Source: Macrostomum lignano (Eukaryota). Taken from it: DNA of 64,000 nt. Positions 13,769 to 58,900 of the stretch are shown here, piece after piece (position 1 is the first letter of the stretch; every line of letters starts with the position of its first letter). The translations under genes and the position numbers were made by a program. The notes beneath the pieces are model-generated. The model did no database searches. It was not told where the DNA came from and worked only from the letters and a program-made list of their open reading frames with translations. The DNA lies in the NCBI GenBank assembly GCA_002269645.1, contig NIVC01000013.1, forward strand, positions 620,001 through 684,000, in the 5' to 3' direction.

Positions 13769-13879
13769 ATGCTACTTTGAGTTGATTTTAATCATTGCTG
13801 CAGCAGCAGTGGCAGCATTGGTCCTAATTTGCTCCCTGATCAAATTCACTGTCTGGAAAATATTGAATAATATGCTAAT

Positions 13880-14334: not shown

Positions 14335-14639
14335 AGTAGTATATACGATACAAAATTGCCAGCAAACCGTTCTCAGCATTCAATCAATTTAACCCTTTAT
14401 CAAGTTGAAACGAATCGTTTTTCACTCCATTATCGCTCGTCTTCACTCCGCTCAACTCGCTCCGCTCATCCTCGCTTCATTCCGCTCAAAAACGATTCGT
14501 TTCAACTTGTTAACGATCAATTCTCTTTGAATGCTGAGAATTCGCTCTCGTCGTTTGCTTTAGTTTGCTGGCAATTTTGTATCGTACTCAAACACACAAA
14601 CACACATTAACCCGCCGCCCACGCCGCAGGCGCCAAGGG
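14335..14639 (+). repeat. Polinton left TIR (305 bp) containing an internal ~243-bp palindrome
   Basis: Reverse complement of 32358-32664; I noticed one substitution and a 2-bp indel. Confidence 0.97.
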
Positions 14640-15212
14640 TCTTTTTCTGTTACTTAAAATTAACCGAGTTTACACCTTTTCAGTTAGTGATACTTTTGAG
14701 ACTGTTGCTAAAAATTCAGAGATTATAAAACAACATATTTTTAATAGAATAATTGATGAAGTTTATTTAAAATATGATGACAAAATAGAACTAAAACTTT
14801 ATCCGTTAGAGTTGGATGGTTTGTATGATCTAGAACAAGAGGGTGAGTTAATATTTCAACTTGGAGATTATTTAAATTCAGGCGATTGGGAGGTTCGTTC
14901 AGAAGATTCCGACTCAACAAATAGTTCATACGAAACCAGTGATTCGGAGAACGAAATTGAAATTTTTATGTAAAAAATGGAATTAGTTAACAGACCCTAC
15001 TTTTCAGTAACTGAATCAACCCAAACAATATTAATTTTTTTATTGAATCGAGTGCATTGAATAAAGGATGAAATACTCGATGAAGTATATATATTTCCAG
15101 ATATAAAGATATATCCGCTTGAAATTGGAGAATTAGATTATATTTGGGATAAGGGGGAGCAAAGTCTTCTTTTAGCACAATGTTTAAACTGCGAAAAAAT
15201 ATTTAAAAAATG
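14640..15212 (+). pseudogene. Two tandem small acidic paralogous ORFs (first lacks its start; second has an in-frame stop)
   Basis: IIDEVYLKYDDKIELKLYPLELDGL versus ILDEVYIFPDIKIYPLEIGEL. Confidence 0.5.
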
Positions 15213-15367
15213 AACTATTACTCTGTAACAGAAACAACATTTATTGTGAAAAATATAACTAAAAAATGAAGGTAAATCGCCCCTTAAGTAATTATTATTT
15301 AAAATTTATTCTTAAAAATGGATATAAGCAAGTCTGATACAGCACACATTTTTATTTTCTAATTTAT

Positions 15368-15628
15368 TTGTTATCTATAGGCTATCGAATTATTCGTTTA
15401 TATCAAATAACGGATATTATAAAACAACAAAATAATACATTGGATAAGACAAAAATAGAAACAGAGATGACAATGTTAATAGTAATAATATCAATTGCAA
15501 CTATAATATTAATAATAATTTCATTACTTTTCTATATTATATGTATCTGTCCCAACAGGTGTTGTAAACGAAAAGAAGAACAACAAGAGCTCCCACAACA
15601 CGACCCTCTAGATTCACTAAAAGTCTAA
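15368..15628 (+). CDS. Small single-pass membrane protein with a Cys-rich/basic juxtamembrane tail
   Basis: MLIVIISIATIILIIISLLFYII followed by CICPNRCCKRK; real start probably the ATG near 15468. Confidence 0.6.
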   Translation: MLSIGYRIIRLYQITDIIKQQNNTLDKTKIETEMTMLIVIISIATIILIIISLLFYIICICPNRCCKRKEEQQELPQHDPLDSLKV

Positions 15629-15629
15629 A

Positions 15630-17226
15630 TTAAACTAACATTATCTGGTTCTCATAAAACGAACCGAATGTTTCTTCACCATCCTTATCAGCAATGATTA
15701 GGTTGTAGGATTTGTAATTAAAACTTTACTAATAGTAAATTTCTCACTTATTTTCCAATATCCTTTTCTTCCCTTTTCAAACTTATCTTTCCATTTATAG
15801 ATATAAACAGAATCACCAACTTTAAAAGGTTTCTTTTTATTTTTTCAAAGTCCCCGAAGGTAACTTTAACGTTTTCAGGATTGTTATAAGCTTGTTGAGG
15901 AGTCATCATTATAGCAGAATGATATGAATTATTATAATCTTTCACGATGGCTGGTAAAATTTTACCCACTTTTGGTTACCATTCAGACTAAACTGAAACC
16001 ATAATTTCTTACCTAAAGTTCGATTAAATCTTTCTATTAATGCGTTTTTGCTTTCTCCATAAATAGAATAAATTTTATTAATATACTCCCCATTCACGTC
16101 CTTCATCCTTTCTTTTCCTTTTTAAAAATGATATAATTTATACATATGAGGATTGTAAAATTCTTTTCCTTCATCAACACACAACCTTTCACTTTTTTCT
16201 CCAATGCTTCTAAAAGCAGCAGCAACTTCTCCTTTTTTGGATTTTAAAGGAACAGCCCACGCATATCGAGTAAAACCATCTAATATGGTTAAAATATATT
16301 TATATCCTCTTTCGTTTGGCATTGACATTAAATCAGCATACCAAATTTCATTCTTTTTGAAGTTCATGATTTTTCTATAAAATTTAGGCTTTCGGTATTC
16401 TTTATGAAGAACCTTTGTCTCATCAGAACTTAATCCGCTACCACTTAACAACAAACACTCAACACAATTATTTCCATGTTGGTTGTAATTAATTCCCAAA
16501 CCAAATTTAACTTTAGACTGCAGAATCTTTTTAACCATCCACCGAGTTAATCTCTGGCTTACCGATAATCCCTGTAGATTATCTAATCCTTGAATCATTT
16601 TTCTATCGGCTTCATGTTTTAATCGTAATGCTTCCTCGGGGGAGTTCTTATCAGCATCTGTGTATGCTAAGTCATGATAATATGCTAACCAATCAATACC
16701 ATTAATGGGGATTGAATCAGCTTTTGGAGTATTGTCAGGATTTAATCTTAAATCCAGTCTAGTACCGGGTAGTTTACCCTCAATCTTTCGAAAGAGGCTG
16801 GAGCACACCATAAGCGGTTAAATTACCACCCACCTCCGTCTGCTCTCTGAACCTTCTCCTTATACTTTTATACTTAGGAGCTTGGCTGCGCATTGCCACC
16901 GTGTCTTCAAGCTTGTTACCATTAGAAGAGGAGTTACCTCTGTTCCTTCAAAAGATTTCTCACTTGAAGTGGTACTTGAAGCTGTATGACGGGTTTCACG
17001 CAATTTGAAGATGTCGCCACAAATAGTGACTAGCAGTAGCTTTGCTTCTACCACTCAGGCCACGGGTTAACTTACAAACGAGTACCCAGGAATGTGTAAT
17101 TCATTTGTATATTTCCCACTAGAAAAAAATACTCGGTAAGCTTGTTAATCCTTTTTGAACATCCAACAATCCACCTTCATACACGATCGACCCAAAGGGT
17201 CGCGAACTTCGTTCGAGTTGGTTCAT
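15630..17226 (-). pseudogene. Parvovirus-type phospholipase A2 fused to retroviral-like (RVE) integrase; interrupted by a ~300-bp insertion and C-terminal frameshifts
   Basis: LHIPGYSFV|PGTRLDLRL...PINGIDWLAYYHDLAY...HEAD (PLA2); WYADL...YILTILDGFTRYAWAVPLKSK...VDEGKEF (DDE); GSFYENQI C-terminus. Confidence 0.9.
16771..17070 (-). mobile_element. ~300-bp insertion, probably a tRNA-derived SINE
   Basis: GC-richer block splitting GYSFV from PGT. 5' A-box-like GTGGCCTGAGTGGTAGAAGC and a weak B-box-like CTTCAAATT. Confidence 0.5.
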
Positions 17227-17710
17227 TTTTAATGTTTAAAAAACACGTTTCTATCAATTTAATAATTTCTAAATATTGATCACGATATAAAAAATTTAAA
17301 GCAAATTCCCCAGTTAACAAGGTAACACCATTATCAAATTCTTTTTGTATTGGGTTTTTAGTAGTATTATTAATGCAAATATAATATAAATCAAATTCGG
17401 GATTAACATATTTAAATTCTAATAACTTTTGAATATTTCTAAATCGACTTGATGAATTATCTGTATTATCAGAAGATTTCAACTCTAACACAATTTTTCT
17501 TTCGGTATGAATTAAATCAATTTTCTTTATTTTTTCAAAACCAAAATGTTTAATAGCTAATAATTCATAAAGAGATCCAAGCCTCATTTGAATTGTTTTA
17601 ATACGATTTGAAATTATTAATTCATCTTGAAATATTTTATTTAGTATTCTGTCAGAACCGACTTTATCATAAATAGATTTACAAAGACAATCTTTTATCG
17701 TATTTTCCAT
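17177..17710 (-). CDS. PD-(D/E)xK nuclease resembling Eco47II/Sau96I-family type II restriction endonucleases
   Basis: KTIQMRLGSLYE...IDL-x(9)-ELKSSDNTDNSSS...IQKL matches my recollection of the Eco47II-family pattern K.lqn.iG..he...D...ElK...NT.Nsss...KL. Intact 177-aa ORF. Confidence 0.75.
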   Translation of the reverse strand: MENTIKDCLCKSIYDKVGSDRILNKIFQDELIISNRIKTIQMRLGSLYELLAIKHFGFEKIKKIDLIHTERKIVLELKSSDNTDNSSSRFRNIQKLLEFKYVNPEFDLYYICINNTTKNPIQKEFDNGVTLLTGEFALNFLYRDQYLEIIKLIETCFLNIKNEPTRTKFATLWVDRV

Positions 17711-17729
17711 TTTTTAAAAATAAATTTAA

Positions 17730-18395
17730 CTAAATACCGGTATGTCCAGCAGCTTTTGCAGCGGCTAGAACTAGTTTTCTAGGAGTTTTAAATCCTTCGC
17801 CAACAGTCCGCTTGTTATTTATTGATTGAACAATTCTTTTATACAAACTAGTGGTTTTAACAGATCCTACTCCCATCTCATCATAAAAATTTCTAGCACT
17901 TACTAATTCGTCCCTAGTATATAAATCGGCATTAAACTTTACCTTAGGATTCATAATAATATTATATGCTCCACCCAATTCTCTATATAGGTCATTTCGA
18001 TTTTTATCAACCCCACCAATTCGATAATTATCACCACCTAACTCTGTCACAACAATACTTCGCGGCACAGCTCTCGGATATTCTTCACGATTACCCCGCT
18101 CTTCAGCCCGAATCTCTGCAGCTCTCAATTGTGCTTGATCAACATCATAAGCAGGCGGCTCATCTTCCTCCTCTTTTGGCTCCGTATTTTTGGCAATTTT
18201 TTCAAGAAGGTCTTTATCTGTTTTTTCTAGTTCACTAATTTTCCCCGTAATCGGATTAACAAAAGGAGCAGCAAATTTCTCACCAGCTAACTGTATTCCT
18301 AACTTTCTTTTTTGTAAATTTCTAACAAAATCAGAATATCTTTGATTCTCTTTATAAATCGCTAACTCTTCATCAACATCCATAAATTGACTCAT
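17730..18395 (-). CDS. Polinton hypothetical (putative core) protein, 221 aa
   Basis: Intact ORF; C-terminal VGEGF...LVLAAAKAAGH resembles Polinton core-protein tails. Confidence 0.6.
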   Translation of the reverse strand: MSQFMDVDEELAIYKENQRYSDFVRNLQKRKLGIQLAGEKFAAPFVNPITGKISELEKTDKDLLEKIAKNTEPKEEEDEPPAYDVDQAQLRAAEIRAEERGNREEYPRAVPRSIVVTELGGDNYRIGGVDKNRNDLYRELGGAYNIIMNPKVKFNADLYTRDELVSARNFYDEMGVGSVKTTSLYKRIVQSINNKRTVGEGFKTPRKLVLAAAKAAGHTGI

Positions 18396-18429
18396 TTTTT
18401 AACATAAAAAACTTTTTTAACTTAAAAAA

Positions 18430-19910
18430 ATGGCTGAAACAAAAACCATATGAAGTGATAAATTTCATTTCAAAAAGTATCGTCAGTATATTAATGAGGT
18501 CAGGAAAAGAGATTTAAATTTTACTCAACCAACAAGCGATAATTCAAACAATTTTACTAAGGGAACCCTAACTTTGGACATTGGTGCAACCAATACCATA
18601 TTGGATTTGAAAAACGCATTTTTCCGCGTTAGGTGGTTGTATACTAGAAATGATGGAACGGCACTTACAGCCCCAGATATCGCAGATCGTTCTGGTATTA
18701 TTATAGAAAATGATTGGTTTTATAAATGTTTTTCCCAAGCCCAACTAACAGTTAATGGAGCCGAGGTTGAGACAGCATCAAACCCAGCAGAGATTAATGG
18801 AGTTTTGAAACATTTAAATTATACTTATTTATCAAAACAAGTTGGTGATAGTGTTGGATGGATGCCGGATAAGGGTAATGGTCAAGCAGTAGTTTTCCCT
18901 AACATACAAAACGTAGCTGGCGCAGATACCGCAGCTCTATTGCTTATCTTAATACCAATATAGTTCCAGTTGTAACTACCATGACTAACACAAAAGATAT
19001 GAACACCGGTTTTATAGATCGTCAGAATAAATTCCCAGTCGCGGTTTTAACCACAGCAACAGCATATGAGCAGGACTTTTCAATCTTCCCACTATTTGGG
19101 TTCTTCTCACCAAATCGGGTATGGAAAGGATTAAAATTTGGGATACAGTTGCAAATATCTGGTGGATATCAGCCTAGGATACTTTATGGAAATTCGATTT
19201 CAACCGATATAGCAGTTCGCATAGCTTCAATTCAATTTGGCGTACCAACTATTGAGGTAACAGCTCCGCTTTTAAAACACATCAATGATCAGTTATTGGT
19301 AGATCAGGAAGTATTTTATTTGAATCGCCATCACTTTATGCGAACTATTAATAACAATCAGGATTTTTTCCAGTGGCAGATAATGCCAACAAGCCGTCAA
19401 GTGAGATATATTTTTGTTTGGTTTAAGATAACAAATAGAAGGAGTAAAAGAGCAAATGGAGATTTATATTGGCTTCAATCGGGCGACGTAGCAGCACAAG
19501 CAGCCACCGCAACTGACAACGCGGTTTCGGCGATTAACGAGTTTAATATCCAGGATATCCGCCTGCAGGTTGATGATCAACATTATCCCGTTGCAAGACC
19601 TCTTAATCTAAACACAGCAAATAATAATGTTAATGATTTTATAAAATATTATCAGGATTATGTCAAAAATGAGGCGTACGCCGTTCCTCAATATACTCCT
19701 ACAGAGTTTCTAAACATTCACCCAGTAGTTGTTTTTGATCTAACCGCACAGAAAGAAAATGTAGCCAGCGTTGGTTTGAATTATATGTTGGAGATTAATA
19801 AAACCGGAAATCAGGGAGTAGATGCCCACGTATTGTTTCTAGAGGAGTTTATGTCAATTGCTAAAGCCGACGGCACCGTTGTTAAGGACGCCCCCGTAGA
19901 TAAAGATTAG
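18430..19910 (+). pseudogene. Major capsid protein (double jelly-roll, hexon-like); TGA at codon 8 and one frameshift near 18945
   Basis: DLKNAFFRV, AQLTVNGAEVE, VRYIFVWF, IRLQVDDQHYP, PVVVFDLT; lies directly upstream of the ATPase and penton. Confidence 0.9.
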
Positions 19911-19929
19911 TTAAATTATTTCCTTAAAA

Positions 19930-20691
19930 ATGGTAAAAGCAAAACACAATAAGATATTTCCAAATGATCCTTTTCTTTGTTTAGTAATTGGTGGGTCGGG
20001 TAAAGGAAAAACACACTTTGTTTATGACCTGTTAACAACCGATGGAATGTTAGACTATAATAATTTAATAATTTATACTAGCAGACCACGAATTAAATAT
20101 TATGAATTTCTTAAACATGGATTAAAAAACAAATTAAAAAAAGATATCTTGTTTAGAATGTTAAGAGCATATGAGCAATATGAGGATGACGACGAACCAA
20201 AATTTACACTCGATGACATTGAGGATTTATGTAAAACAACGACATGCGGACAAAGTCCGATATCCGAACGCTCCCCAACCGTTAAAATATCAACCCGATT
20301 ATCCTATGATCAAATTCCAAAACATGATAAAACACTAATTATTTTTGACGATTGTATTAACGACAGAGATCAAGAATTGCAAAAAGATATTTTTGTTAGT
20401 GGTAGAGGAGATAGAATTGGCGCGTTTTATCTAACACAGTCCTTTAAAGAATTACATTCGATTATAAAAACGAATGCAACTTGTTGTGTAATGTTTGATT
20501 TAGATAACTATGATCTACAAAACATACATGCGAGATTTAATCCAGGGTTGGATGCAAAACCATTCAAAAGCATGTGTAAAAAAATTTGGGATGATAGTCA
20601 ATATAAACATATATATATCAACCCCAGGTTAGAAAGGAAACACCGGATCTTAACAAATCTGATAAAAGAAGATAATGATGATGAGGATTAA
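19930..20691 (+). CDS. A32/FtsK-like DNA packaging ATPase
   Basis: Walker A GGSGKGKT, Walker B LIIFDD, GRG...YLTQ; intact 253 aa. Confidence 0.95.
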   Translation: MVKAKHNKIFPNDPFLCLVIGGSGKGKTHFVYDLLTTDGMLDYNNLIIYTSRPRIKYYEFLKHGLKNKLKKDILFRMLRAYEQYEDDDEPKFTLDDIEDLCKTTTCGQSPISERSPTVKISTRLSYDQIPKHDKTLIIFDDCINDRDQELQKDIFVSGRGDRIGAFYLTQSFKELHSIIKTNATCCVMFDLDNYDLQNIHARFNPGLDAKPFKSMCKKIWDDSQYKHIYINPRLERKHRILTNLIKEDNDDED

Positions 20692-20709
20692 AGCTTTCCC
20701 ACTATAAAA

Positions 20710-21511
20710 ATGGCTACAAATTTGGATACTATAAAACGATTGGTAGATCGAACCAATTCAAAGTTTAGTACAACATTACAGTTTATAATGACAAGTAGTG
20801 AGCAACGGATTCAATTGCGCGATCCGTTACAACTCGATCAAAGCCTAAGTTATCAAATTAAATTGATACTATTTTCGGTTTTTAACATGCCTTTAAAATG
20901 CAACAAATAATCAATTTAGATATTCTAAAGATTCTGGAGCAAATTGGACAACATTTAGTGTTAACCCAGGAGCTTATAGCTATACCGATTTGAATGCTTA
21001 TATAGAGGGAGAATTAACAGCTAATGGTGATTGGGTAGCAGGCGCGATTGTTATAGGGGTTGATTTACCATCTGGCAGATTTACACTATCACTAGGATCT
21101 GGATATCAGGTTGATTTCACAATTGCAAATTCACTCAGAACCATACTAGGATTTAATTCCCGAATAGTTACCACATCAAGCACCGGCGATACGGTGGGAA
21201 ACATTGAGGGTGAAGTCAATACAATTAATATAACAACCGACATTTCAAACGGTGGTTATATAACAGATGATAACGGAGTTTTGGTTCAACGAGGCATCAT
21301 TTATTCAATTCCCTTTCTTGCTGTTCCAATTGGAGAGAAAATGATTGTTTCACCCCAAACCCCAATATATTATCCTTTAAATCAATATAGTGTTCAATCA
21401 ATTTATATTAGGATCGTAGATGAAAGCGATAGGTTAATAAGTTTTGGCGGACAATCAATAACAGTAATTTTAAGAATAAAACAAGTTAAATTATATAGTA
21501 AAAATGGGTAA
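20710..21511 (+). pseudogene. Penton/minor capsid protein (single jelly-roll), frameshift near 20895
   Basis: NNQFRY...PGAYSYTDLNAYI, LRTILGF, PIYYPL...IRIVDESDRLISFGG. Confidence 0.9.
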
Positions 21512-21707
21512 CCAATCTGAAGGAATGCGGACAAAAGCCGCCTACATCGCTATAAAAAAACAAACGGATAAAGTTCAAAATGCAAAGGATAATTATGATA
21601 TCGAACTAACAAAATTGAAACAAATTCAAGCAGAAAAAGTAAGAAAGGAGTTGTTAAAACCCGCGGCTACGAAACTAACTAAAACCAAGAGTTTTTCAGG
21701 AACATAA
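21504..21707 (+). CDS. Small basic helical protein (67 aa)
   Basis: ORF fits exactly between the penton and protease genes. Confidence 0.55.
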   Translation: MGNQSEGMRTKAAYIAIKKQTDKVQNAKDNYDIELTKLKQIQAEKVRKELLKPAATKLTKTKSFSGT

Positions 21708-21708
21708 A

Positions 21709-22084
21709 ATGGCATTAACGTGGGACTCATTCAAACAAAGATATGGAACTGACACAACAAGCAATATCGAATTAACCAATTGGGCGAGGCAATTAAAAAT
21801 AAAACTAATAAGATGCGTTATGCGGGATGAGATCAAAGACTTACCAAGATATAGATCTTACATTGTCAATATTGAAACGACAAAAGAAAACGGCGTTCAT
21901 TGGTCAGCAGTTTATTCAAAACCCAAACTTGTTTATTTTTTTGATTCATGCATTACCTCCGCTACAGGAAATAAAAGACAAATTTAATCATACTAAAAAC
22001 CGATTATGTGGAGATTATCACGAACAGTTTCAAACATTTGACAAAATTTATTGTGGACAAGCAGCGTTATATTTTTTTATATAA
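21709..22084 (+). pseudogene. Adenain-like maturation cysteine protease, frameshift near 21950
   Basis: GVHWSAV (His), YFFDS (Asp), QTFDKIYCG (Gln/Cys). Confidence 0.92.
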
Positions 22085-22153
22085 AATTAACAACTCGAAG
22101 GAAAGACCTGAAGACTTTAAGACGATTTTAGACTATAAAATAGGCAGTAAAAA

Positions 22154-35822: not shown

Positions 35823-35999
35823 GATTGTCGTTCTTCTCATGGACATGGATGCATCCTCTATGCTGACTTCTTTTTGCATGTGCTTATTTTTTTCTACTAC
35901 AATGTATTTCCTTTCATAATTTTGTCTGAAGTATTCAAAAATGCCTGGAATTCTCACTTGCTCTATAATCAAAAGTAATTAGTTCTTTTTCAACAAATT

Positions 36000-38297
36000 A
36001 TGGTAAAGTCTGAAAATGAAAGCGAGTTTTCTCTCTCAACTGACTATTCGGCGCACTTATGCGAGTCCATTAGTTCGCCTTCTGATATTTCATCATTGAG
36101 CAATATCAGTGCGAATGCAAATGCACCTAGCATTGAAATCGATCTGAAGCGGACTAGCACTGCTGCTACTGCTTGCTCTGATGATTTAGTGCCAGATGAT
36201 GAGGACATTAAAAATCTGTCTAGTCTATCAACCATTTCTGATCCTGATGTACAAGCCGCTCTAATCTACCAATGGGCCATTACATCGGGGGTTTCTGAGG
36301 CAGCTCTCGATAGGCTATTAAAACTTGCTTCTGTTCTTCTTCGGGGTGCAGGGCCCCACACATTTCCAACCAGCGCTAAAGTGCTTAAGTCGAGACTAAA
36401 CAATGTTTGTTCTATTAATGACAGCTGTGTTTCCGAGATTTCTGTTTGCAGTGAATGCAAAGGCAAATGTGATGTTCATCCTCTAAAGGCAAAAGCTACC
36501 GTGACTCTTCTAGACATTGTTCCTCAGCTCCGGGTCATCTTGACTAGGTACATTGGAACAATTCTCCAGTATGAGCAGGAGTTACGAATGAGTAGAAACA
36601 GTGATGTCCTGAATTCTGAAATTGTGAACAAGCAAAATTTAAAGCTATCTTCAGGCAAAGAACTCCACTTGCATCTTCTCATATCTGCCGATGGTGCCAA
36701 CTTTTTCGAAAGCATTCAGAGCAGTTTTTGGCCATTTCAAGCCCAAATTCTGAATCTCCCAGGGCACATTCGTCAACGCTTTGCCAATCTAATTCTCATA
36801 GCCCTTGTTTCCTCCAGGGCCGTTCCTAACTTTCAATATTTTTTGTCCGATTTAATGAATCACTTGCCGAAGCAGTTTGATTTTTTGGACTATTGTGTGT
36901 ACGTCCATTGCACACTATTTGTGTGTGACCTACCAGCTCTTGCTAAGCTCTTTTGCATTCGTCAGTTCAATGGGGCATTTAGTTGTCCGAAGTGTCTCCA
37001 TCCTGGCGAGAGTATAAAAGTGTCTCAAAAGGGATCAAATTGGGTTTTCCGATTTGACAAGAACCACATTTTTCCTCTGCGAACAGCAGCTACTCACAAT
37101 GAGCATTGTCAACTTGCTAACATTCGCAACAAGCCTGTTTTCGGTGTAAAAGCACGCAGTTGTTTGTTGAACTACATTTCTTTTCCGAACTGCTATGCCA
37201 TCGACAGCTTACATTGCTTTTTTGAAGGTCATGTAAAATACCTTCTAGAAGAATTGACATCCTCGGCGAATACACATCAGCAATATATTTGCTCAACAAG
37301 TTGTCTGGCATTTGTCGCAGCTTGTATACGCAATTCTGTCATCCCATCCAGTGTTTTCGTTAATTCCAATTTTGGAAGTTTTTCGGATTGGAAGGCCAAG
37401 CATTTTAAAAGTTTTGCTTTGTATTTTCTTTTTCCTACCTTAGTGCAGCGAGTAACGCATTTGCCTCTGAAGCTGCTACTTACTAATTTGGTGCTTCTTT
37501 ATCACATGCTATATAACCCACGGTCGAATAAGTCGGACATTGAAAAATTGGCTGAGTCGTTTGTTGGCAATGCTCAGAAAGTCTTCGGTCCGAGAATTTT
37601 GCGTCTAAACTTTCACTTGCTTTTGCACATTGCTGATCAGTATGAATTGCTTGGTCCTGTGTCTTTTTATTCCATGTTTGCTTTTGAAAGCGCAATTGGA
37701 ATGTTTAAGAAATTTTTGTGTGGAACTTCATCGTTTGTCTCCCAGCTAGTATTGAAGTTTTTGTGGCAAAAGGAGCTATTTCATTATTTTAGTCAAGCCC
37801 AGGATCCTGCGGTTCTAGAAGCCTTCAATTCCATATCTTTGGAGCCAATGCGATCAGAGGGCATTCTTCGAAGCTCTGAAGCCTATGTCCATGGATATTT
37901 GTTTTCCAGTGTACTCTCTGCTGGCAAATCTACCAGCTCAAATCATCTTTGCATTTTGAAGTCTGGCGAAATTTGCTCAATCCTTGAATTTAGATTACCG
38001 AAATTTGTGCGCGTTCAAATTCTGGAACCAATCGTCTTGCTTTTTGACTACATTTCTTCTAGCACATCATGGCCTGAGGATTTAGTAGAGTGGCAACAGA
38101 TGCTTAGCGCAATGTTTAAGAGGTGCTCGTCATTTAATTATGTTCTAGTTATTTTGTCGACTGCACAGCGATTGTCCCCGGAAAAGTTTGTCAATCTGGC
38201 GGATATCGACCGTCCTTGCATTGCTGTTCCCGTAGCGTCCTATAGTAAGGATTGCTTTTGTGCTATTCCCCTGTGCAAATCATTTGAGCATGATTAG
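36000..38297 (+). CDS. EnSpm/CMC-type DDE transposase, 765 aa, intact
   Basis: CSEC; ISADG...WP; CDLPA...FNGAFSCPKC; DSLHCFFEG; WKAKHFKSF; NFHLLLH...F.FES; terminal EHD. Confidence 0.92.
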   Translation: MVKSENESEFSLSTDYSAHLCESISSPSDISSLSNISANANAPSIEIDLKRTSTAATACSDDLVPDDEDIKNLSSLSTISDPDVQAALIYQWAITSGVSEAALDRLLKLASVLLRGAGPHTFPTSAKVLKSRLNNVCSINDSCVSEISVCSECKGKCDVHPLKAKATVTLLDIVPQLRVILTRYIGTILQYEQELRMSRNSDVLNSEIVNKQNLKLSSGKELHLHLLISADGANFFESIQSSFWPFQAQILNLPGHIRQRFANLILIALVSSRAVPNFQYFLSDLMNHLPKQFDFLDYCVYVHCTLFVCDLPALAKLFCIRQFNGAFSCPKCLHPGESIKVSQKGSNWVFRFDKNHIFPLRTAATHNEHCQLANIRNKPVFGVKARSCLLNYISFPNCYAIDSLHCFFEGHVKYLLEELTSSANTHQQYICSTSCLAFVAACIRNSVIPSSVFVNSNFGSFSDWKAKHFKSFALYFLFPTLVQRVTHLPLKLLLTNLVLLYHMLYNPRSNKSDIEKLAESFVGNAQKVFGPRILRLNFHLLLHIADQYELLGPVSFYSMFAFESAIGMFKKFLCGTSSFVSQLVLKFLWQKELFHYFSQAQDPAVLEAFNSISLEPMRSEGILRSSEAYVHGYLFSSVLSAGKSTSSNHLCILKSGEICSILEFRLPKFVRVQILEPIVLLFDYISSSTSWPEDLVEWQQMLSAMFKRCSSFNYVLVILSTAQRLSPEKFVNLADIDRPCIAVPVASYSKDCFCAIPLCKSFEHD

Positions 38298-55911: not shown

Positions 55912-58900
55912 CAGGTCTGAGAGGCTGGTGGTCAGCCTAACCCTGGGGTGGGATTCCCCTGTTTCTTTCCTGACGCCTCATGGCATCCCAGAGGACATTG
56001 AGGACGTGGGTTCGGCCCAGAGCCCGAGGGGCTTCCGGCTCAATATGGAAGCTGTGGAGCTTGGCTGCCCTCATCTTGAGCAGCCAAGCCACCCCCAGCT
56101 GCTTGACCCTGTCTGCGAGCATCGGCATACCTGCCAGCTTGTGCAGATATTCGATGCTGATGTAGGATGGCACACCATATCAGATACGGAGAGCCAGGTT
56201 TTGAAGTTTTTGCAATTTTATTTGATTAGTCGCACAAATTTGGCTCAGCATAGGCGCTCCATAGGTGAGAGCGCTTTCTACGTATGCCCTGTACAGCATT
56301 CTGTGGGTGGTGCTACTCAGCTTTGTCATTTTTGCAATTCTGCATAGCGACATAACAATGGCTCTGCTGGTATCTGCCATGTCCACATGTTTGTTCAAAC
56401 AGAGGCTTTGGTCAAGGAGGACACCAAGGAATTTCACCTCCTGACAGTACGGAACCTCAGTGTCCCCCAGATATAGTTTGGGTCGCAAGTCCATGCGCCT
56501 AGTAGGCTTGTAGTTGAAAGCGATTGCTTTACTTTTCCCGGAATTCAGTTATCTAATGCCCTGTTTACCGCACCAGTCAAAGACTCGTCTGAGGTAGCTT
56601 TGAAGGGATGTTCGGAGCCCCGCAAAGGTGTCTGCTGAGGCCCAGACAGCCATGTCGTCTGCGAATTGACTGCGTTTGACGCTTGGGATGTTGGGAGTCG
56701 GCATTGAGCTGATGAAGAGGAGATACAGAAGAGGGCTCAGAATGCCTCCCTGAGGGACGCCAGCCGGGGTGGTGTGGGGATCGCTCAGGGCCCCCTCGAT
56801 TCGAACCTGGATTTGTCTGTCTCGCAGGTAGTCTGACAGGATTCGCATGAGCATAGGTGGAAAACCATCAGTGAGCATGCTATGCCTGATCTTGTCGTGC
56901 CAGGTAGAGTCAAAAGCTGCCACTGCATCCAGGAAGACTGCAGCGGACTTTTTAGCTTTGCCCTTTGCTACCATGGCATCTTGTGCCAGGCGGCACAGGC
57001 TGTCATACGTGGAGTGAATTTTGCGGTAGGCGCATTGGTCATCTCCTAGGGTCTTATTGTTCTCAAGGTGCTTAGTAAGTCTTTTTGCTATTAGCTTCTC
57101 AAACACTTTGCCCAGACATTAGGTCAGGCTGATTGGTCTGTAGGAGTTGGGGTGTTCGAGCGGTTTGTCCGGCTTGGGGATCATCGTCACCACAGCTTTC
57201 TTCCAGGCGCTAGGGAAAATCCCCCAACCGTAGCAGGCGTTAAAGAGATTAGTGAGTCTCGTTATTGCCACCCCCCTCTAAGCCCAGCTTGAGGACGCAG
57301 TTGGGAATCTTGTCTAGGCCGGGTGCACCATCGGGCCTGAGGTGCTCCAGTTCCCACAACTGTGTCTGCCACAGAGAATGCAGCATCAAGTGGGTGGGTC
57401 TCAATGGGTTCGATTCCCTCAGGAACGGGATTGAATGAGGTGAGCTGTGCAACATCGGCCACCTCACGTTTAAGCCGGTCGCATGTGGAGGGGACTGGGC
57501 GCATCTTCGAGTCCAGAGTCTCGGCTAGAAGGTTAGCCTTCTCCAGATCCGTGTGCGCAGTTGTTTGACCCAGAGTGAGGCTGGGGATGGAGTTTGGCTT
57601 AAATTTGCCCATCAGCTTTTTAGTGTCGTGCCAGAAATTCTTCACTTTCTTATTTTTGCTATTCTCAACAATACTCTCACAGATTTTGGTTAGCTTTCCA
57701 TTCTGGAAGGCGCTAATTTCTCTCTTTATGCGATTTGCGAGCTGGTTTGCTTAGTTTTTGAAATTTTGATCCCGTGTGCTGAAGAAGAGGCGCCTGAGTC
57801 GTCTGCGCTCTTTGATCAGGTCGAGGATGTACTTGGGTAGGGCATTTTTGGCACCAAAGTTTGGCACTGTAGAGTCAATCACGGTGTGAATGGCCTTTGT
57901 GATGTGATCCACTTCGGCATTAATTTGAGCAGCATTTGATAACTGAGCTCAAAGCTTCACTGATTTTGAGCCAAAACTCGTCCCAGTTTGTTTTTGAAAA
58001 GTTTTTGGGTCTGGGGGGACCAGCCCATTTCTTAGACCGAATGTTGAGCGTGAGGATTATAGGTAAGTGGTCACTGCCCAGGTCAGGACCCACCTCAAAG
58101 TCCTGCACAAATGGGAGAAAGTCCTCAGTGGCCAGGGCGAGGTCCAAGACATTCCTAGAAATCAGCCCGTTTTTGGTGGCCAGTCTGGTGAACTGACCGG
58201 CCTTATTGAGAATGGTGGGCGAGGTGGGGCCCTCAGACAGCCAGTCGTGCAGCTGGTTGCCAGCCATGTTGTTGCTGCTGTCACCCCCGAGGAAGCGGTG
58301 TCTGGCGTTGAGGTCACTCATGAGCACACTGCGCCTACGGGAGAAAATATTTTTGAGTAGGTTCAGGTTCAGGTGGTACGGTGCTGGAGACCAGTACACC
58401 AGAGCGAGATTGAAGTCAGGACCAGAGTTGTCAGACAAGCTGACAGTGCAGGAGATGGCTTCATGGTTGACATTGTCGTATTGCAAGCGCACATTTGTGA
58501 GTTTGACGCGAGGAGAGTGAGCAAGGAGCAGCCCGCGTTTGACATGCGGGGTATCATACCGAATGATAGAGTACCCGGGAATCTGGACAGTGTGACGACT
58601 TTTGAGAATGGTCTCAGAGAAGAGGGCAATGTCTAGCTCTTGACTGACGACCCACTGTGTCAGCTCTCTAATTTTCGGGTTGAATCCCCTGCAGTTTAAA
58701 TGCATAATCTTCAGGGCTGTAGTTTGATTGTTTGAGTCTACAGTTAACTCACTGAAGTTTCAATTCAAGTCTTGAGTTTAGCTGCCTGAGACTAGGACTC
58801 AGTGGTCGCGCCAGCCATGCTCGGCACTTCCTGGAGTGCAGCCCGCACAATGTCCTCAACCATTTTACTGGTTGATTCCACAGTGAGGACCTCCCCAGGC

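Follow-up and report, generated by a model that had tools for sequence, protein, structure and literature searches.

A restriction-type nuclease gene and a group I intron in a Macrostomum lignano Polinton: possible self-protection by site loss in place of methylation

How does an element that encodes a restriction-type endonuclease, and no methylase beside it, spare its own DNA? The question is raised by a gene of 177 aa in a stretch of 64,000 nt from Macrostomum lignano (assembly GCA_002269645.1, contig NIVC01000013.1, positions 620,001 to 684,000 of the forward strand; hereafter the window). An earlier note, made from the letters of this DNA alone, had described it as an intact bacterial-type restriction-endonuclease-like gene within an animal Polinton. 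The Polinton is indeed present as a complete element of 18.3 kb (Table 1), in which Pfam finds matches to PolB, the A32 ATPase, a PLA2-like domain and the integrase, and the reading frame is unbroken, with zero internal stops on the minus strand.

Table 1. Features of the element, with positions counted in the window.
Feature	Position	Strand	Remarks
Whole Polinton (PolB, A32 ATPase, integrase)	14335..32664	.	272-nt inverted ends, 6-bp target duplication; zero GGNCC
PLA2-integrase exon 2	16122..16769	-	PLA2-like domain, then rve integrase core; stop-truncated here
Group I intron	16770..17069	-	300 nt, ORF-less, between PLA2-loop Gly and Pro codons
PLA2-integrase exon 1	17070..17226	-	frameshifted here; 3' end departs from sister copies
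Eco47II/EcoO109I-like PD-(D/E)xK endonuclease gene	17177..17710	-	intact, 177 aa, predicted GGNCC cutter
Upstream conserved gene	17730..18395	-	221 aa; bounds the variable nuclease slot

The nuclease gene, its family and its relatives

The catalytic residues that the note had read from the protein are present, but their spacing is one residue shorter than the proposed E...D-x(11)-ExK, namely E49...D65-x(10)-E76-x-K78, and the accompanying NTDNSSS motif begins with N82. The gene is also intact amid broken neighbours, as had been stated: the integrase frame of the window copy stops at 229 aa, while the sister copies have open frames of about 400 aa, and PolB is split into several pieces. The nuclease gene has 105 matches in the genome, and 169 homologs were found at E ≤ 0.001. 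Among 14 distinct unbroken copies of the same Polinton family (family A), the dN/dS check proposed in the note gives 0.23, with a codon bootstrap interval of 0.15–0.37 that is optimistic because the copies are related; the truncated copy L029 is left out of this value, which becomes 0.27 when it is included. E49, D65, E76, K78 and N85 are invariant in these 14 copies, and 90% or more of 110 homologs keep D65, E76 and K78. The open reading frame is real and under purifying selection.

The structure prediction agrees with a PD-(D/E)xK fold, the absence of which would have spoken against the note. In the AlphaFold2 model of the window protein (pLDDT 92.5) the core α/β fold of the restriction type is found, and no extra DNA-binding domain is predicted. 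The highest TM-scores in Foldseek belong to EcoO109I (0.61–0.63), an enzyme with the site RGGNCCY, and AvaII is high too; with VIA-align, run on 996 Foldseek-ranked chains, EcoO109I is again best (Z 11.3, rmsd 4.7, 175 aligned), followed by the next family at Z 6.3. In the ESM Atlas, unnamed viral clusters come first, then clusters of EcoO109I and Eco47II. Searches of PDB sequences with the window protein and with the profile gave zero matches. A profile search assigns the proteins to the Eco47II-like family, since 102 of the 110 aligned homologs match Pfam RE_Eco47II at E ≤ 0.01; the window protein itself scores 22 bits (E 1.4e-4) against PF09553, below the curated gathering cut-off of 25.9, which several homologs exceed.

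The close homologs (47–58% identity in local alignment) are environmental proteins, while a more distant clade comprises 71 loci in IMG/VR contigs, many of them labelled GVMAG. At 62 of these loci the window protein finds a detectable match, and 61 of the 62 have a C5 methylase within 3 kb, the sole exception running out at a contig edge; the 9 further, weak loci have neither such a match nor a C5 methylase. The nearest relatives with known context are thus nucleases of giant-virus restriction-modification (R-M) pairs. In a set of 39 sequences the window protein detects these nucleases by phmmer with E 1e-11 to 1e-16, whereas two annotated bacterial Eco47II-family proteins of the same set are undetected. 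Homolog P0022 is a natural fusion of a C5 methylase with the nuclease, and the two plasmid hits examined for it both pair an Eco47II-family nuclease with an adjoining methylase. P0128 is a second natural fusion, in which a C5 methylase domain is joined to a nuclease of this family.

The origin from bacteria or giant viruses suggested in the note is therefore retained in its viral part, while "bacterial-type" applies at the level of the family only and no donor is fixed. Quick trees, which are effectively unrooted, yield neither a donor nor an order in which the two arrangements of the gene described below, free-standing and nested in an intron, arose. No match was obtained by tblastn with the window protein against phages and plasmids, or with two homologs against phages, and scans that required exact peptide words returned zero loci, both in viral contigs (window protein, A1, P0064, P0182 and A3) and in bacterial genomes (A1), an outcome that, given this requirement, does not amount to absence. 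The gene likely came from a giant-virus-like R-M pair, minus the methylase. The absence of a methyltransferase from the element, already remarked in the note, was borne out by Pfam scans of 25 element ORFs, which gave zero methylase families, and by tblastn of the element with a related C5 methylase, which gave nothing at E ≤ 1, so that the element lacks the cognate methyltransferase of a type II R-M system. Elsewhere in the host genome, L092–L095 are exons resembling DNMT methyltransferases; two genomic loci with PF00145 were read, and by their appearance we take them to be DNMT1- and DNMT2-type exons. The host DNA that flanks the element in the window holds a DUF1258/transposase-like ORF (35979–38297) and the endonuclease domain of a LINE-like element (57920–58759).

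The group I intron and the distribution of the nuclease

About 110 nt downstream of the nuclease gene lies a group I intron that is missing from the earlier note. Its boundaries were inferred from intronless copies, and it matches RF00028 with 55.6 bits (E 6e-12, over 16779–17148), above the gathering score of 50; in 13 of 17 loci the match reaches 61–89 bits. The Gly-Pro pair of the PLA2 loop, which it splits, is conserved for calcium binding in PLA2 of the parvovirus type. In seven nuclease homologs the C-terminal tail resembles a translation of the sequence just past the window gene, that is, of the intron. The window intron ends in A and not in the usual G (omega-G), as do 34 of 41 family-A introns, whereas 16 of 16 introns of the family-B type, introduced below, have the terminal G. 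Splicing of the A-ending family-A introns may be impaired. Among sequencing runs recorded as RNA, none contains the stretch. Contigs from runs that were guessed to be RNA cover the nuclease gene, with zero joints across the window intron. Two contig joints across the family-B intron were considered as evidence of splicing and rejected, because matching intronless genomic alleles exist. In the P7 helix the family-A introns show paired changes relative to family B.

The arrangement of nuclease and intron differs between Polinton families. In family A the nuclease is free-standing, upstream of the intron, and occupies a variable slot; it is present in 36 of 140 scored copies, in a survey in which 150 of 511 candidates were scored. 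Most of the 30 nuclease-less family-A copies examined carry an unrelated HNH-like gene in this slot, as do all three intronless family-A copies. The product of this zinc-finger/HNH-like gene measures 190–205 aa (e.g. L056:7406–7975 and L074:1953–2570); it has zero hits in Pfam, and the ESM Atlas gives an HNH lead at 0.89. In family B, by contrast, the nuclease (62–66% identity to that of family A) lies inside a homologous intron at the identical PLA2 site, in 18 loci, and the metagenome contig L051 also has an intron-nested nuclease in a PLA2 gene. The 47 genomic loci that bear the nuclease and have an exon-2 anchor (L001–L028, L031–L048 and L050) all show an insert at the Gly|Pro site. The GGNCC of the junction is kept by 3 intronless copies of family A and by 22 of family B, and among those examined none has a nuclease nearby (0/3 and 0/20, respectively). 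For family A this mutual exclusion of the nuclease and an unsplit site does not reach significance (0/36 against 3/104, Fisher p 0.57), and for family B it follows from the arrangement itself, the gene being located within the intron. As in known cases of homing, an optional gene is thus located in or beside a group I intron, the intron splits the predicted site, and intronless alleles exist.

The neighbourhood of the nuclease had led the note to raise a role in integration or genome processing. The nuclease does adjoin and overlap the PLA2-integrase gene in family A. Exon 1, whose ATG at 17226 has an identical position in intronless copies, shares 50 nt with the 3' end of the nuclease gene in the window copy, where the note had already seen an overlap, and 20 nt in most copies. 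However, the unrelated alternative gene overlaps the PLA2-integrase start likewise, so that the overlap is a property of the slot. Moreover, intronless family-B elements integrate without the nuclease, and the 6-bp target duplication agrees with the action of the integrase by itself. With the gene in roughly a quarter of the family-A copies, replaced by the HNH-like gene in others and nested in the intron in family B, a role in integration or processing appears extremely improbable. The nuclease and the integrase are adjacent because the site of the intron lies in the PLA2 exon, not because of the integrase.

Loss of GGNCC from the element and its relatives

The element contains no GGNCC where 17.2 are expected, the lowest value of all 256 words of the form abNcd, while its flanks hold 102 against 118.7 expected in 45.7 kb; the nearest sites, at 13820 and 32874, are in host DNA. 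Shuffling the codon order of the element gave zero GGNCC in 0 of 1000 cases, and synonymous shuffling with the proteins fixed in 24 of 1000, the signal being weaker by this measure. The sites are likewise absent from one family-B copy (0 against 18.0 expected in 16.8 kb) and from five nuclease-bearing family-A stretches (0 against 41.0). Depletion is also seen in 24 family-A stretches with the HNH-like gene (12 against 209) and in the intronless family-B element parts (10 against 78); 6 other family-A stretches have 34 against 68, with 33 of these sites in two stretches that include host DNA. That copies without the nuclease are purged as well calls either for selection at the level of the population or for an ancestor that bore the nuclease. 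At the protein level, Gly-Pro is missing from the element ORFs (0 against 5.6 expected), while Pro-Gly occurs 5 times. Because the codons of Gly-Pro always read GGNCC, the site at the junction is forced in an intronless PLA2. Giant-virus loci with a methylase, by contrast, keep GGNCC (422 against 693), and 59 of the 61 loci have one or more sites.

As a control, family C, which has the nuclease in 0 of 17 stretches, was found to be mildly depleted (119 GGNCC against 188), the word being tied for the lowest palindrome. This mild depletion could speak for the view that the nuclease is an inactive passenger and that GGNCC was lost for another cause. Such an explanation is very improbable, as the gene is under purifying selection with invariant catalytic residues, and the depletion in the element is total and confined to one word. 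Family C (L119, L120 and L128–L142) is an abundant third Polinton family with an intronless PLA2, in which GTNAC (0.63), TCNGA (0.71) and GGNCC (0.63) are depleted; perhaps these losses are footprints of other nucleases.

A specificity for GGNCC is predicted from four partly independent lines, namely the Eco47II family, the EcoO109I fold, the methylase partners and the loss of the word, and the footprint suggests a site of 5 bp. Eco47II itself has been linked to GGNCC, "without certainty" in the words of the source (PMC10305163). Alternatively, the enzyme could be a classical homing endonuclease with a long site, comparable to I-Ssp6803I and directed at the intronless PLA2 junction only, the purge being a relic of a restriction phase. 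The nuclease is encoded within the intron both in family B and in L051, seven close environmental homologs terminate in intron-core-like peptides, and its alternation with the HNH-like gene of family A would suit such an enzyme, whose long site would moreover leave host DNA uncut. However, families A and B have diverged so far that synonymous changes between their nuclease genes are close to saturation, and the purge is still complete in both; the protein also has no predicted extra DNA-binding domain. Furthermore, a cluster of 11 near-identical family-B loci without the nuclease has a shared GGNCC upstream of the gene, whereas the word is missing close upstream in 14 of 15 loci that bear the nuclease. 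A long-site enzyme is for these reasons considered unlikely. The shared family-B GGNCC (L218–L236) is located about 660–730 nt upstream of the junction, in a duplicated repeat whose other copy is without it.

Proposed mechanism and comparison with known systems

We consider it probable that the gene encodes a restriction-type GGNCC nuclease derived from a giant-virus-like pair without its methylase, and that the element protects itself by the loss of sites and by intron masking. We lean, more slightly, to the wider reading of a methylase-free discrimination of self from non-self, in which a viral genome has been recoded to be siteless, a ribozyme intron masks the last site, and the cutter serves both as a weapon against competitors and as a homing endonuclease. 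According to this scheme, a GGNCC cutter would have lost its methylase, which would be tolerated since the element had shed its sites, and the group I intron would hide the last of them, the one that Gly-Pro of PLA2 would otherwise force. During active replication the enzyme would cut any DNA bearing GGNCC. A co-replicating intronless relative would offer about one site, so that the break would fall at the position of the intron. Once it is repaired from the copy that bears the nuclease, the intron would be carried over, and with it the nearby or nested gene. Because the remainder of the element is purged, a 5-bp cutter could behave as a homing endonuclease, while unrelated elements with many GGNCC sites would be degraded. 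Judged from sequence, rival elements are the likely targets of the enzyme, which would promote its own spread and that of the intron and leave its own DNA uncut.

Host DNA has about one GGNCC per 450 bp, from which we infer that integrated copies are silent or that the enzyme is confined to the lytic phase. Degradation of host or helper-virus DNA in that phase could then be the main task of the enzyme, and intron homing a side effect. The purge would suit any cutter with a short site, the 102 GGNCC of the host flanks would provide targets, and chlorovirus R-M enzymes degrade host DNA, whereas the marseillevirus R-M system leaves it undegraded (PMC7253447). About three quarters of the family-A copies, however, are without the nuclease, and the family-B gene travels with the intron. 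Since patchy presence and movement with an intron indicate a selfish or competitive gene and not a core lytic function, host degradation as the main task is quite unlikely.

If the competitive scheme is true, it describes how a restriction enzyme can turn into a homing endonuclease without a long recognition site, with self-protection through sequence avoidance and an intron in place of methylation. The coexistence of a nuclease beside the intron and a nuclease inside it, at one site in one genome, would document a path proposed for mobile introns. The footprint would also be a testable trace of how Polintons compete with one another; little is known of their active phase in animals.

One of the closest known arrangements is collaborative homing by F-CphI and the psbA group I intron in cyanophage S-PM2 (PMC6083498). 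As there, the nuclease of family A is free-standing beside an intron-containing gene, the intron would block self-cleavage, and intronless alleles are the predicted target. Unlike F-CphI, the Polinton enzyme has a type II restriction fold and a predicted 5-bp site that would be made unique by genome-wide site loss; the Polinton is, moreover, an integrated virus of a eukaryote, and its sister elements nest the nuclease in the intron. With the R-M systems of giant viruses it shares the nuclease family, found in the IMG/VR contigs, and the proposed use against competitors, which has been put forward for marseillevirus against competing viruses (PMC7253447). The giant-virus loci, however, have a methylase (61 of 62) and keep their GGNCC sites, and the Polinton has neither. 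Budvirus has a predicted GGNCC R-M pair (PMC10960955), which is alike in its predicted site. Likewise, the PD-(D/E)xK fold, the family match and the predicted GGNCC-type site liken the window protein to the Eco47II family (PF09553), which is listed as bacterial (PMC3424549), and to EcoO109I, from which it differs in length (177 against 272 aa), in the lack of a cognate methylase and in a score under the Pfam cut-off. As a class, the system would act like a restriction enzyme and a collaborative homing endonuclease at once, and the missing methylase sets it outside R-M systems.

Among other known enzymes, PacI is an orphan whose host is said to be without its site, and I-Ssp6803I is intron-encoded. 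The latter is a PD-(D/E)xK homing endonuclease that forms a tetramer, recognizes 23 bp and resembles PvuII (PMC3384342), and thus has a restriction-like fold in the homing role that is proposed here; unlike it, the window protein resembles EcoO109I and is associated with a short-site footprint. In nematode Polintons, HNH and VSR domains are reported in the polymerases (10.1101/2023.08.22.554363), and insect-associated Polinton-like viruses (PLVs) have free-standing homing genes (PMC11296320). RF00028 introns of about 300–380 nt are known from protein genes of protist PLVs, the reported cases being from Paulinella, Desmodesmus and Rhodomonas only (PMC12220804); the Polinton intron differs by its nuclease partner and by the site purge, neither of which is described in the available part of that source. 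In a literature search that left most subscription papers outside, no report was found of a Polinton in which a restriction enzyme occurs without a methylase and together with a masking intron.

Two further kinds of insert were observed in these Polintons. In L002, L012, L015, L027, L028, L071–L076, L079 and L080 of family A, the Gly|Pro site is taken up by a second, different insert, which is about 326 nt long. It has zero Rfam matches at E ≤ 0.5; by its core motifs we take it to resemble another group I intron, and in the exon that follows it the Pro-Gly motif is seemingly lost. Short palindromic inserts, each about 30 nt long, were met repeatedly and at varied sites, in genes as well as in intron loops, for example at about 17185–17215 of the window, in the L005 intron, and upstream of exon 1 in L052, L061 and L077. 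They mostly shift lengths by multiples of three and are possibly a tiny mobile hairpin element.
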